NCBI RefSeq assembly: GCF_030384885.1 | Contig: NZ_CP128615.1 | DNA length: 64,000 nucleotides | Direction: 5' to 3' (one strand) | From: Escherichia coli | GTDB taxonomy: Bacteria; Pseudomonadota; Gammaproteobacteria; Enterobacterales; Enterobacteriaceae | Part shown: positions 34,373 through 60,642 of the stretch, piece after piece | Layout: every line of letters starts with the position of its first letter | How positions within the stretch are numbered: the first letter of the stretch is position 1 | Notes under the pieces: model-generated | What the model was told of the DNA's origin: nothing | Databases searched by the model: none | The model's input: only the letters and a program-made list of their open reading frames with translations | Position numbers and translations under genes: made by a program

Positions 34373-34806
34373 GGGGTCAGTTTGGATATCGAAAATTATT
34401 GTACGTTAAGGTCGTTTTTTGACCTTTCTACTTTAGCTGGCCTCAGCCGACGAAACTTACCGGAGGCCGGTATTCTGTTGTTTTTCCAGATGTAATCGCC
34501 TGTCAGATTGATATGCTCCCAGCCTAACGGCGACAAATGTGACAGCAGTTGCTCGTTGATCTTCACCCCTTTACGCTTCAGGGCATCGACCGCTCTTTCC
34601 ATATACACTGTATTCCACAGCGAGATAGTTGCTGTCAGCAGCGTCAGTCCACTGGCGCGGTAGCTCTGATTTTCCGGTTTACGATCCCTGATTTCACCCA
34701 GACGGTGCAGGAATACCGCGCGCGCTAGAGAGAGCTCCCATCGCTGCGCGACGGGCCCCAACCGGAGAACCAAGTTAGTTACAGCATTCAGATGAAAATT
34801 CATCAT
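34373..34806 (-). pseudogene. Tn3-family transposon end: 38-bp IR (34373-34410) plus C-terminal fragment of TnpA
   Basis: IR GGGGTCAGTTTGGATATCGAAAATTATTGTACGTTAAG; ORF fragment ...[17 protein letters not shown]...[17 protein letters not shown] matches TnpA C-termini. Confidence 0.7.
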
Positions 34807-35250
34807 AAAACCGGCGCCGGTTTGCCAGCCAGGAGCCCCTCCCCACCACTGAAAAGCGCCGCCGCCCCCGGCCGAAGGCCGGGAGTAGTGTCGCTTTTAA
34901 TGATGGGTGTTGTAACTACTCTTCGTCATCTCTGTGAGTAGTGTCGCGGTAAGTTCTGGGATACACGCTCGTAAGCGGCCCTAACGGCCCGCTAACGCGG
35001 AGATACGCCCCGACTGCGGCTGTCGCCTTGCCGGGACCACTCCGACCGCGTACAGAGGCATCTGAGCCGTTTTTAGCGGGTATAGCTTTGCAGGGAAGGG
35101 GGTGGGTGAGGCAGAACCTGTCAAAACAGCAGCCGGCTGCGCCGGGCGACGGCGCCATTTACCCGCAGTACTCCATTCAACTTCAGCTGGCGCCTCCATG
35201 CCGCTGACGCGGCATTATCTATACTTTAAGTCTGGCCACTGGAGGTAACC

Positions 35251-35335
35251 ATGTGCGGACGTTTTTCTCAGTCTATGACGCGGGAAGAGTATCTTTCTCT
35301 CCTCGCCAATGAAGCCGATCGAAATATTGCCTACG
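35251..35335 (+). pseudogene. N-terminal fragment of an SRAP (YedK/HMCES-like) peptidase gene, truncated by IS903
   Basis: MCGRFSQSMTREEYLSLLANEADRNIAY; the MCGRF N-terminus is the SRAP hallmark; cut at the IS903 end. Confidence 0.5.
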
Positions 35336-35463
35336 GGCTTTGTTGAATAAATCAGATTTCGGGTAAGTCTCCCCCGTAGCGGGTTGTGTTTTCAGGCAAT
35401 ACGCACGCTTTCAGGCATACCTGCTTTCGTCATTTTGTTCAGCGCTCGTACCAGGGCCATAGC
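35336..35463 (-). mobile_element. IS903 right-end segment (part of an IS903 copy split by Tn5393)
   Basis: 128 bp identical to the last 128 bp of IS903 in reverse orientation; continues at 42169-43102. Confidence 0.85.
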
Positions 35464-35496
35464 GGGGTCGTTTGCGGGAGGGGGCGGAATCCTACG

Positions 35497-58610: not shown

Positions 58611-58841
58611 ATGCGCACAGTTTCGATATTTAAAAACGGCAATAACCGCGCCATCCGTCTGCCCCGGGACCTGGATTTTGACGGCGTCAGCGAGCTGGAG
58701 ATCGTCCGGGAAGGGGACAGCATCATTCTGCGTCCCGTCCGGCCGACCTGGGGCTCGTTCGCGCAGCTGGACAGGGCCGATCCGGACTTTATGGCGGAGC
58801 GTGAGGATGTGGTCAGCGATGAAGGACGCTTTGAGCCATGA
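58611..58841 (+). CDS. vapB: VapB/VagC antitoxin, second copy
   Basis: Protein identical to the copy at 2446; promoter region related but diverged. Confidence 0.9.
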   Translation: MRTVSIFKNGNNRAIRLPRDLDFDGVSELEIVREGDSIILRPVRPTWGSFAQLDRADPDFMAEREDVVSDEGRFEP

Positions 58842-58932
58842 AGAAAACCTGGATGCTCGACACTAACATCTGCTCGTTCATCATGCGCGAGCAGCCGGCA
58901 GCGGTGCTGAAGCGCCTGGAGCAGGCGGTGCT
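58838..58932 (+). pseudogene. vapC: vapC, truncated after about 31 codons by an IS21-family element
   Basis: MKKTWMLDTNICSFIMREQPAAVLKRLEQAVL then IS terminal sequence TGTCAACGCCACGATG. Confidence 0.85.
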
Positions 58933-60440
58933 GTCAACGCCACGATGTTTGACCGTTATTTGCCATTTTCATGCCCGCTAAGATACTTTCGTTACTGATG
59001 CTGTCTGCTTTCCACCATTTCATCATCACTGATTGGCGTTGTGTTTTTGGTCAGCACTCCAGCTTTACGTTTCTCTTTTAACCGGTAACTCTCTCCTTTG
59101 ATATTCAGCGTGGTTGAGTGATGTAGCAACCGATCCAGTATCGCTGTTGCCAGCACGTGATCTCCGAACATTTCTCCCCAGTCTGCGAACCCTTTGTTTG
59201 ACGTCAGTATGATGCTCGCTTTTTCATATCGACGGTTCAGTAGCCGGAAGAACAGGCTGGCTTCCTCTCTGTTCATCGGCAGATAGCCTATTTCATCCAG
59301 GATCAACACCCGGGCATAACTCAGTTGCTGTAGCTAACACTCCAGCCGATTTTCCTGTTTCGCTTTCATCAGTGTCGCGATCAGTCAGTCCAGTGGCATA
59401 AACAGTACCCGATGTCCCGCATCCACCGCTTTCATGCCAGGAGCTATGGCCAGATGAGTTTTTCCGACACCAGGAGGTCCCAGCAGGATCACGTTTTCGC
59501 CGCCAGACCAGCCAGTTCCCGGACAACCTTACGGTCGATGCCCGGCTGGAAGGTAAAATCGAACTGCTCCAGCGTTTTGACCCACGGCAGACGAGCCTGC
59601 TTCAGCCGGGACTCCATACCGCGCTGATGCCTGCCGTTCCATTCCTGCTGTAGCGCCATGCACAGGAACTCCCGGTAGTTCAACTCTTTTTTAACTGCCT
59701 GTTCCAGCAGGCTTTCAACGTGATAACTCAGATGCTCCATTTTCAGGCGACTCAACAGGACTTCCAGCTCATGCATCACAACAGCTCCTCATAGGCACTC
59801 AGTGGTCGATGTTCCACCTGACTGACCTGCTGCCAGAGCGGGGCGTGATGCTCCGGCACTGTCTGCCAGCCAGACGATGCCGGACAGAGGCGATGTGAGG
59901 CCACCAGTTTCTCATTACTGTAGATCCGCAACTCGTCATCCAGCGATATTCGTATCGATACTGGCTGACCACACAGCGCTTCGGGAACGCTGTAACGATT
60001 ACCACCAACCTCGATATAGCTGTCCCAGGACACATGGCGGATGTCGAAGTAACTGGTATCGAAGTCCGTATCCGGTAACGGCTGCAGATGTTCCTGCTCC
60101 AGCGCGAAGCGCTGTTCCGGCGTTTCTTTGAACTGGCGAAGCTCCCGTTTGTCAGCCACATCGGCTATCCATTGCTCCAGTTGTTGATTAACATGAGTGA
60201 AGCTGTCGAACCTGCGGTACCGGACGAAGAAGTTCTCCTTGAGGTATTTCACCATCCGCTCAACCTTACCTTTTGTTCTGGCCCTGCGTGGACGGCATGC
60301 CCGTGGCAGGAAGTTATAGTGGTCGGCCAGCAACAGGAATCCGGAGTTGAACACGACTTTCCCGTTGTTATTCTTCAGCACCGCAGCCTTCTGGTTATCA
60401 ACCAGCACCGTTTTCACACAACCACCGAATTTGATCCCTG
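58932..60440 (-). mobile_element. IS21-family element remnant (istB frameshifted, istA 5'-truncated)
   Basis: IstB fragments 58992-59309 and 59489-59779 in different frames; IstA C-terminal 59776-60417 (...RARTKGKVERMVKYLKENFF...). Left boundary approximate. Confidence 0.7.
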
Positions 60441-60604
60441 AAAACTGTCAGCGCTGCGAGGACGAAGAAAGTATTACGGCTAAAGCCGTAATACCTCCCC
60501 ATCCAGCTTCAAGCTATGTAGAAACTTATGTGGGTAGAGCAGTCCCGACAGGGCAGTACCGCATTGACAGGCCGTCAGGGCCACTTACGAGCTTGTATGA
60601 CAAG

Positions 60605-60642
60605 GGGGGCCGTCTGGATATAGCGAATTATTGTACGGTAAG
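60605..60642. repeat. Tn3-family 38-bp inverted-repeat-like sequence
   Basis: GGGGGCCGTCTGGATATAGCGAATTATTGTACGGTAAG, 30 of 38 matches to the IR at 34373 and in the same orientation. Confidence 0.45.

Follow-up and report, generated by a model that had tools for sequence, protein, structure and literature searches.

Two directly oriented Tn3-family terminal repeats in an Escherichia coli plasmid: probable leftovers of a TnEc1-type transposon and a MITESen1-family miniature element

Two Tn3-family terminal repeats that lie 26 kb apart and in the same orientation in an Escherichia coli plasmid are very probably the leftovers of two separate, related mobile elements, placed together in an ordinary plasmid mosaic that needs no inversion. 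The repeats occupy positions 34373-34410 and 60605-60642 of the window, by which we mean the whole 64,000-nucleotide stretch that was analysed (contig NZ_CP128615.1), and both have their GGGG on the plus strand. The stub at 34373 and the element at 60605 are not the same element, as the former derives from an autonomous transposon with its own tnpA while the latter is a non-autonomous miniature. The features referred to below are as follows.

34301-34372, plus strand: truncated IS1, bp 1-72 from its left terminal repeat GGTGATGCTGCC, abutting the outer tip of the TnEc1-type inverted repeat (IR)
34373-34410, plus strand: 38-bp terminal IR of TnEc1 type (Tn3 family), tnpA-proximal end, with the element interior to its right
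34396-34728, minus strand: 3' fragment of tnpA, last 111 codons, with its stop codon within the IR
35464-42168, plus strand: intact Tn5393 (6,705 bp), located between the repeat pair and bordered by an exact 5-bp target duplication (ATAGC/ATAGC)
58992-60427, no strand given: IS21-family remnant with IstA and IstB fragments, which cuts off the left flank of the miniature element on its left
60428-60604, plus strand: F-plasmid-type left flank of the miniature element; homology to F and pUTI89 begins exactly at 60428
60605-60848, plus strand: complete 244-bp MITESen1-family TIME (non-autonomous, Tn3-derived), collinear with MITESen1 over its full length
60605-60642, plus strand: left IR of the miniature element, 34/38 to MITESen1 IRL and 31/38 to the TnEc1-type IR
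60643-60810, no strand given: non-coding core of 168 bp, aligning with the MITESen1 core
60811-60848, minus strand: degenerate right IR of the miniature element, 34/38 to MITESen1 IRR and 31/38 to the TnEc1-type IR
60849-60917, plus strand: 69-bp relic resembling a segment of a ColE1-type plasmid origin, beginning at the first base past the element

The repeat pair and a third, inverted repeat

The repeats at 34373-34410 and 60605-60642 are identical at 31 of 38 positions. The pattern common to both (GGGGNCNGTNTGGATATNGNNAATTATTGTACGNTAAG) is matched in the window by these two sites only, with 0.00 matches expected from 100 shuffles. The generic Tn3-family frame GGGG-N26-ACGNTAAG occurs at six sites against 0.65 expected, and the remaining four bound a Tn1721-type unit (28628/34229) and Tn5393 (35464/42131). 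A third related repeat, inverted with respect to the others, was found at 60811-60848. This partner was missed by a mismatch-tolerant pattern search and by a repeat search with 7-base seeds; it was detected by blastn against an intact TnEc1-type element and then by a repeat search with 6-base seeds, in which 60605-60642 and 60811-60848 form arms of 38 nt. The arms are only 71% complementary to each other, which counts against our preferred reading of two separate, related elements.

These results bear out most of a preliminary description made from the sequence alone. The 38-bp Tn3-family ends that it placed at 34373 and 60605 were recovered with the same coordinates, strand and shared pattern, and its claim that they are not the two ends of one intact transposon holds, the 60605 repeat having its own inverted partner. 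The description had foreseen that the 60605 sequence might show no similarity to Tn3-family ends on a proper alignment; when aligned, it matches both MITESen1 IRL and the TnEc1-type IR at the counts listed above.

The TnEc1-type stub

The repeat at 34373 matches the frame GGGG...ACGTTAAG. It is a 38-bp terminal repeat (GGGGTCAG...GTACGTTAAG) with an outer GGGG and an inner ACGYTAAG, and is identical at 38/38 positions to both IRs of an intact 6.4-kb TnEc1-type element in the IncX1 plasmid pCP53-38k. A minus-strand open reading frame at 34396-34806 matches C-terminal positions 873-954 of the Tn3 transposase model NF033527 (E=1.2e-32). Over its last 111 residues it shares 95.5% amino-acid identity with the pCP53-38k TnpA (residues 885-995). 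The gene reads toward the repeat and terminates within it at 34396, so that the TnpA C-terminal fragment named in the preliminary description is confirmed. NCBI gives the name 'Tn3-like element TnEc1 family transposase' to proteins in the same 90% cluster as the pCP53-38k TnpA, and our use of the name TnEc1 follows these protein names and one paper (PMC9412624). While the IR and the adjoining 111 codons closely resemble the pCP53-38k element, the window stub keeps only 356 bp of it, nucleotide homology to the transposon being confined to 34373-34728, and is left without a partner IR, a functional tnpA or cargo. Its nucleotide identity to the intact and longer copies examined is 90-93%, and the exact parent variant is not among them. 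No TnEc1-type partner for the 34373 IR is present in the window, where the only other related repeats are the IRs of the miniature element, and the end has neither the inverted partner nor the 5-bp duplication of an intact element. Judged from these comparisons, 34373-34728 is best classed as a relic and not as an intact Tn3-family member.

The 72 bp on the outer side of the stub (34301-34372) are 100% identical to bp 1-72 of the pCP53-38k IS1 copy. The same IS1/TnEc1-IR junction is present in the IncR plasmids pYLMB52a and pKqq_18A069_2, both of which have an IS903-68 bp-deltaIS1-IR arrangement, and delta-IS1 and delta-TnEc1 have been published as part of the IncR 'locus B' (IS903B - 68 bp - delta-IS1 - delta-TnEc1; PMC9412624). 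The window shares with these two plasmids the 72-bp delta-IS1/TnEc1-IR junction and the adjoining spacer, but differs from 'locus B' in that a Tn1721-type end at 34266 halves the 68-bp spacer, leaving 34 bp, and in that IS903B is not adjacent. We infer an order of events in which a TnEc1-type ancestor entered IS1 at bp 72/73 and was afterwards reduced to the part that ends at 34728, which would have left a one-ended, dead stub, and in which the mosaic of IS1, stub and backbone then spread among IncR plasmids.

The intact Tn5393 to the right of the stub provided, through its target duplication, a positive control within the same window for the duplication checks reported below; its gene content was taken from the annotated pYLMB52a copy. 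An interruption of Tn5393 by IS26, considered by analogy with NZ_CP024857, was rejected, since the window is without IS26 and the transposon is continuous.

The miniature element

MITESen1 was reportedly first described by Pong and Hall in 2021. It is a 256-bp Tn3-derived inverted-repeat miniature element, listed in ISfinder, that has been surveyed by Gomi and Yano in 2026 (PMC13367494), and Table S2 of that paper supplied the MITESen1 sequence used here. Alignment of 60605-60848 with this sequence gave 198 identities in 242 aligned positions (82%, E=7.6e-50). The two share 38-bp Tn3-type IRs around a non-coding core of ~170-180 bp, are collinear throughout and are plasmid-borne in Enterobacteriaceae, whereas the window element differs by its 82% identity, by deletions of 10, 2 and 2 bp that bring it to 244 bp, by its degenerate right IR, and by its fixation at a single site, upstream of the RepFIB of F-type plasmids, with no other context found at >90%. 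The core aligns with the cores of MITESen1 and of the family copies L012-L015, relative to all of which it has the 10-bp deletion. The right IR, which blastn paired with the right terminus of the TnEc1-type element, has the tip GGGT instead of GGGG and the inner end ACATTAAG instead of ACGTTAAG. The element is short (<500 bp) and without a transposase gene, the longest open reading frame wholly within it encoding 45 amino acids. Four further family copies, in unrelated plasmid contexts, align with it only within 60605-60848/9. From these alignments we assign 60605-60848 to the known MITESen1 family as a diverged addition. This variant lies below the threshold of the published survey (at least 95% identity and coverage; PMC13367494) and was presumably left uncounted there.

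Other TIMEs include IS101 (209 bp), TIME244, IMU and TIME1-4 (PMC13367494, PMC4133298). Like these, the window element has two Tn3-family IRs, is non-autonomous and would need a transposase in trans (PMC13367494, PMC4133298), but its IRs are of a different lineage, those of TIME244 and IMU being Tn21-like and those of IS101 Tn3/gamma-delta-like. TIME244 itself was rejected as the identity of 60605-60848, because its sequence is unrelated and the shared length of 244 bp is a coincidence.

We discount entirely the possibility that 60605-60642 is non-coding F-plasmid DNA which resembles a Tn3-family end by chance. The element is unannotated in F and has no target duplication, as such a reading would predict, but the shuffles yield an expectation of zero matches, the full-length alignment to MITESen1 is highly significant, and four unrelated contexts show sharp boundaries. 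The relatedness of the IRs might also suggest that one autonomous transposon inserted twice and that each insertion was cut down to an end fragment. This is improbable. The repeats differ at 7/38 positions, both the 60605 repeat and its partner are nearer to the corresponding MITESen1 end (34/38) than to the TnEc1-type IR (31/38), the sequence inside 60605 is the MITESen1 core and not tnpA, and the element is complete at 244 bp with no truncation. The suggestion in the preliminary description of relics of two insertions of the same or a related element is thereby narrowed: two insertions of related elements stand, a single shared element does not.

Comparison with related plasmids demonstrated that the stub and the miniature element occur in separate plasmid backgrounds. 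NZ_CP024857, the nearest relative of the left half of the window, is without 58934-64000; pDETEC81 shares 58404-64000 at 99.9%; and the IncR mosaic of the stub occurs in plasmids without the F-derived segment. An identical copy of the miniature element lies at 40438-40681 of the classical F plasmid (NC_002483.1), between pif and RepFIB, and the element and both of its flanks are 100% identical between the window and F. These observations bear directly on the proposal, also raised in the preliminary description, that an inversion split a single Tn3-family transposon and left its ends facing the same way 26 kb apart. Direct repeats with 31/38 identity would fit such a history, as would the inversions that multidrug-resistance plasmids often carry. 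We nevertheless give it next to no credence, as the inverted partner of 60605 lies only 168 bp away in a 244-bp unit collinear with MITESen1, the same unit and flanks are present in F with no TnEc1 stub found in the region of F retrieved, and both repeats correspond to the tnpA-proximal left end of the parent, of which one transposon does not have two. In addition, when 60300-64000 was compared with the intact TnEc1-type element by blastn and tblastx, only the two IRs matched, with no tnpA-like or other TnEc1 interior to the right of 60642, and the window shows neither IS26 nor an inversion breakpoint signature.

A further alternative pairs the 34373 IR (plus) with the IR at 60811-60848 (minus), making a 26.5-kb segment with Tn5393 and the IncR replicon mobile by a TnEc1-type transposase acting in trans, in the manner of TIME-COMPs (two-TIME-bounded composites). 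The orientation is right for a transposable pair, the 34373 IR is identical to those of an intact element, and movement of cargo by TIME-bounded structures is on record (PMC13367494). This pairing is very improbable. The flanks TCTAT and TAAAG do not form a duplication, so that nothing indicates past movement of the segment. The fourth terminal G and the inner ACG motif are missing from the right IR, and no cognate tnpA is present in the window, where the only TnpA genes are of Tn1721 type (53% identical) and of Tn5393 (36% identical).

Distribution, decay and possible origin

A total of 358 PLSDB records match the miniature element at 95% identity or above, and ~2,300 match a MITESen1-family element at any identity. 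The locus was found in 362 of 5,426 complete E. coli genomes (~7%), with no annotated feature among the matches listed, and the F-plasmid copy is likewise unannotated. In copies of the pUTI89 type the left IR lacks 9 bp internally, a deletion that many lineages carry. The flanks of the window element, ACAAG and TAAAG, match at 3/5 positions, so that the check for 5-bp target duplications proposed in the preliminary description found none here, a result that weighs against our reading of an inserted miniature element. Duplications were also absent at four sampled family copies and at the TnEc1-type copy in pCP53-38k, and MITESen1 copies without direct repeats are reported in the published survey (PMC13367494). 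With its GGGT right IR, the left-IR deletion of many lineages and the missing duplication, the element looks decayed. A query of the joined flanks gave no empty site among the matches listed (60 of 1,956 PLSDB records); the full-length matches listed span 712-721 bp in two pieces and all carry the element. The lack of a before/after pair among these matches is a further point against our reading, and because no empty site was seen there, we infer insertion from family membership and from the sharp boundaries.

Both repeats are putative sites at which one sub-type of Tn3-family (DDE) transposase binds and cleaves, and they have separate insertion histories. The miniature element would move only with a cognate transposase in trans, and none is encoded in the window. 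TnEc1-like elements are the likely source of such a transposase, since both ends of MITESen1 are matched by their terminal ~50 bp: positions 1-50 (92%) and 6346-6394 (90%) of the TnEc1-type element, with left and right preserved. A TnEc1-type TnpA is thus a candidate for mobilising MITESen1. In the window the element is probably an old, fixed and decaying insertion, immobile at present, in the backbone upstream of F RepFIB; it would have come to this plasmid with the F-derived segment 60428-64000, and the same orientation of the 34373 and 60605 repeats would be a coincidence of assembly.

The right flank suggests an additional step. Positions 60849-60917 are 81-87% identical to small ColE1-type plasmids (~1,590 records in the 80-90% identity band), and the matches listed to such plasmids all start at window position 60849 (query base 178). 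Only ~70-78 bp align to the ColE1-type origin (pEDL933-2 compared). The UptR sRNA and the rest of the right flank were checked as possible ColE1 RNAI/RNAII relics; no RNAI match was obtained in the window while a control plasmid gave RNAI, and UptR was rejected as an RNAI homologue. The miniature element could mark the place where two replicons fused long ago by the action of the element itself, in which case replicative transposition would have formed a cointegrate of an F-type plasmid and a small ColE1-type plasmid. Although we consider it unlikely, such a cointegrate would explain both the ColE1-origin homology from the first base past the element and the absent target duplication. In a weaker variant, the conserved family core may carry a recombination site or another cis-acting site.

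The main value of these results is for annotation, as a direct pair of Tn3 ends 26 kb apart could pass for an inverted or giant transposon, and the pair here is accounted for by an IncR relic already documented and by a miniature element. Three small points are possibly new. An unannotated, diverged MITESen1-family element resides in the classical F plasmid and in ~7% of complete E. coli genomes, where TIME surveys with identity thresholds would miss it. TnEc1-type transposons, on account of their matching termini, are an obvious candidate helper for the MITESen1 family, which is reported to bracket qnrS1, floR, qnrD1 and blaNDM-1 regions. Finally, MITESen1-family copies are usually without target duplications, a hint that they are products of cointegrate formation or intramolecular transposition and not of simple insertion. 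The findings leave the current understanding of Tn3-family biology unchanged.

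Two left ends in direct orientation

The preliminary description reported two Tn3-family terminal repeats in the same orientation, and both 38-mers were recovered at their positions with GGGG on the plus strand. They are listed here with the IS1 fragment that adjoins the first of them.

34373-34410, plus strand, GGGG first: 38-bp inverted repeat (IR), GGGGTCAGTTTGGATATCGAAAATTATTGTACGTTAAG
60605-60642, plus strand, GGGG first: 38-bp IR, GGGGGCCGTCTGGATATAGCGAATTATTGTACGGTAAG
34301-34372: IS1 bp 1-72, contiguous with the outer end of the 34373 repeat

The repeats are identical at 31 of 38 positions, and the pattern common to both has no further site in the window (0.00 expected in shuffles). 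The generic Tn3-family frame GGGG-N26-ACGNTAAG occurs at 6 sites against 0.65 expected; the remaining four are the ends of a Tn1721-type unit (28628 and 34229) and of Tn5393 (35464 and 42131). Assignment of both repeats to Tn3-family ends was confirmed by this frame, by the identity of the 34373 IR to that of an intact element and by alignment of the 60605 unit to MITESen1. The preliminary description had recognized that they cannot bound one intact transposon. Each repeat is equivalent to the left, tnpA-proximal end, and this alone argues against two ends of one element.

The TnpA C-terminal fragment noticed beside 34373 is genuine. A minus-strand ORF right of 34373 terminates within the repeat; its product aligns with the final 82 positions of NF033527, a Tn3 transposase model (E=1.2e-32). 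An intact relative of 6,394 bp, with the same 38-bp IR at either end, is present in the IncX1 plasmid pCP53-38k and contains an IS1 insertion besides tnpA, a permease gene and an ArsR-type regulator. Nucleotide homology to this element is limited to 34373-34728 (90% identity); at the protein level, the C-terminal 111 residues show 95.5% identity to its TnpA. Proteins sharing a 90% cluster with that TnpA are named "Tn3-like element TnEc1 family transposase" by NCBI. Judged by these alignments, the 34373 repeat is the sole surviving end of a TnEc1-type transposon. The stub is already known as a relic, being part of "locus B" of IncR plasmids, which consists of delta-TnEc1, delta-IS1, 68 bp and IS903B (PMC9412624). 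The order IS903B, 68 bp, delta-IS1, IR was found in IncR pYLMB52a, and the spacer, delta-IS1 and IR are again present in pKqq_18A069_2, where an ISKox1 insertion lies immediately interior to the IR. The window differs from locus B in that a Tn1721-type end at 34266 spares just 34 bp of the 68-bp spacer. To the right of 34728 lie a non-coding fragment that is frequent among F-like Klebsiella plasmids and then, from 35336, an IS903-like end.

A complete miniature element at 60605-60848

No tnpA-like sequence was found right of the 60605 repeat. When 60300-64000 was compared to the intact TnEc1-type element, a second match emerged, of 60800-60848 to the element's right end, and a partner repeat is located there.

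60848-60811, minus strand: right IR, GGGTTCAGTTTTGAGATCGGGAATTTTTGTACATTAAG, identical to the TnEc1-type IR at 31/38 positions

An inverted-repeat search with a 6-base seed returned the pair 60605-60642 / 60811-60848 (38 nt, 71% complementary, 168 nt apart), which a 7-base seed misses. The preliminary description was thus right about the left arm and overlooked the right one. The 244-bp unit is collinear end to end with MITESen1, a 256-bp Tn3-derived miniature element (sequence in Table S2 of Gomi & Yano 2026, PMC13367494), with 198 of 242 aligned positions identical (blastn E=7.6e-50), so that the similarity to Tn3-family ends is significant on proper alignment. Each IR matches MITESen1 at 34/38 positions. 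The unit shares 73-83% identity with four more family members, which come from unrelated plasmids, and similarity to all four ends at 60605 and 60848/9. The segment 60605-60848 is a discrete, complete, non-autonomous element.

Unlike the family, which has ACGTTAAG, the window copy has ACATTAAG in its right IR and lacks the fourth terminal G. Mutational work has established that the terminal GGGG of Tn3-family ends is required for cleavage and strand transfer. A check for a 5-bp target duplication was negative, the flanks being ACAAG and TAAAG. We infer that the copy is old and fixed, and it is probably now immobile. The 34373 IR, which is intact, and the 60811-60848 IR, which is inverted relative to it, might jointly act on the intervening 26.5 kb, but no duplication flanks that segment, the right IR is degenerate and the window holds no helper; nothing supports such joint action.

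Setting of the two loci

The window is mosaic plasmid sequence, of which the first ~58.9 kb resemble IncR plasmid NZ_CP024857 in rearranged form. Found in this part are a BREX cluster, Tn1721-type and Tn5393 transposons, IS1 and IS903-like elements, umuDC, parAB, an IncR rep gene, an integrase gene and vapB. NZ_CP024857 lacks 58934-64000, and it also differs with respect to IS26, of which none was found in the window.

~4000-25200: Type 1 BREX cluster (brxC, pglX, pglZ, brxL and others), 99.99% identical to the region annotated in NZ_CP024857
28628-34266: Tn1721-type unit, 5,639 bp, inverted 38-bp IRs, methyl-accepting chemotaxis protein gene
35464-42168: intact Tn5393, 6,705 bp, perfect 5-bp duplication ATAGC, inserted in an IS903-like element (IR from 35336)
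45673-46245: tandem array, 37 bp x 15.5 copies, 93% matches
53711-54086: tandem array, 36 bp x 10.4 copies, 86% matches, in the IncR replication/partition region
58992-60427, minus strand: IS21-family remnant (IstA and IstB C-terminal fragments)

The Tn1721-type unit lacks a target duplication (AGATA / TTAAT), and its right end halves the locus B spacer. Comparison with pYLMB52a identified tnpA, tnpR, IS1133, strA and strB in Tn5393. The two tandem arrays may be iterons or centromere-like repeats. The IS21-family remnant joins the IncR-type vapB region to an F-type segment and truncates the F-type sequence on its left, at 60428; this junction is shared with pDETEC81, to which 58404-64000 is 99.9% identical.

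From 60428 onward, where homology of the element's flanks to F begins, the sequence is the segment that F-type plasmids have directly upstream of their RepFIB initiator gene. An identical 244-bp copy is located between the pif genes and RepFIB in the classical F plasmid (NC_002483.1, 40438-40681). An inversion, which the preliminary description had offered as one explanation, is not supported by these results: the 60605 repeat is paired with a partner of its own, F retains the second locus intact, and the first belongs to a separate IncR mosaic. The other proposal, relics of related elements, holds in the form of the stub at 34373 and the MITESen1-family element. Both are of known kinds, a Tn3-family relic and a Tn3-derived inverted-repeat miniature element (TIME) of the MITESen1 family.

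The element is matched at >=95% identity in 358 PLSDB records, and the locus is present in 362 of 5,426 complete E. coli genomes. Among 364 E. coli records, 275 match at 95-99% and have a pUTI89-type 9-bp deletion within the left IR, those listed spanning 337 rather than 346 bp. No annotated feature under the E. coli locus, and no empty site in a joined-flank search, was found among the matches listed; in PLSDB the element was not seen in another context at >90% identity. The F-plasmid copy is a diverged MITESen1-family member and appears to be unannotated; it falls below the threshold of 95% identity and coverage used in the published survey (PMC13367494).

Immediately right of the element, 69 bp (60849-60917; TAAAGATACCAGGC.TCCCCC.GGAAGC...CCTGTTCC) share 81-87% identity with the replication-origin segment of small ColE1-type plasmids. 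This homology starts at the first base past the element, ends at ~60917 and belongs to the RepFIB-upstream region of F. Such an abrupt start, together with the missing duplication, allows the speculative reading that the element stands at the site of an old cointegrate junction or beside a deletion. The F-derived segment also contains a full-length match to the UptR sRNA family (Rfam RF02568; 61192-61283, plus strand; 123 bits, gathering score 100). UptR was rejected as an RNAI homologue: RNAI had no match in the window and was detected in a control ColE1-type plasmid.

Kinship of TnEc1 and MITESen1

Over its terminal ~50 bp, MITESen1 aligns with both ends of the TnEc1-type element, left/right order being kept (1-50 at 92%, 6346-6394 at 90%), and each MITESen1 IR matches the TnEc1-type IR at 35/38 positions. 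On the strength of these ends and IRs, TnEc1-like transposons are probable parents and trans-acting helpers of the MITESen1 family, a kinship that would explain the likeness of the window's two repeats. TnEc1 is unmentioned by Gomi & Yano (PMC13367494). No cognate transposase is encoded in the window, the Tn1721-type and Tn5393 TnpAs being 53% and 36% identical to the TnEc1-type protein.

One family copy, in pLAO33 (NZ_OP242262.1; locus L012, 1501-1757), shares 91% identity with MITESen1; an initiator gene of the RepB family (RepFIB-type) is located ~550 bp away. This copy and the F copy have flanks without homology to each other, and the pLAO33 copy represents a second independent association of the family with a RepFIB-type replicon.

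Neither the four single MITESen1-family copies sampled (L012-L015; positions 1501-1757 or 1501-1754 of each locus) nor the intact TnEc1-type element of pCP53-38k (L005, 9001-15394) has a flanking 5-bp duplication, and the annotation shows no resolvase gene inside the latter. The published survey (PMC13367494) also lists MITESen1 copies that lack direct repeats. The absent duplications and the lack of an annotated resolvase suggest that cointegrate or intramolecular transposition outcomes are common in this TnEc1/MITESen1 lineage.
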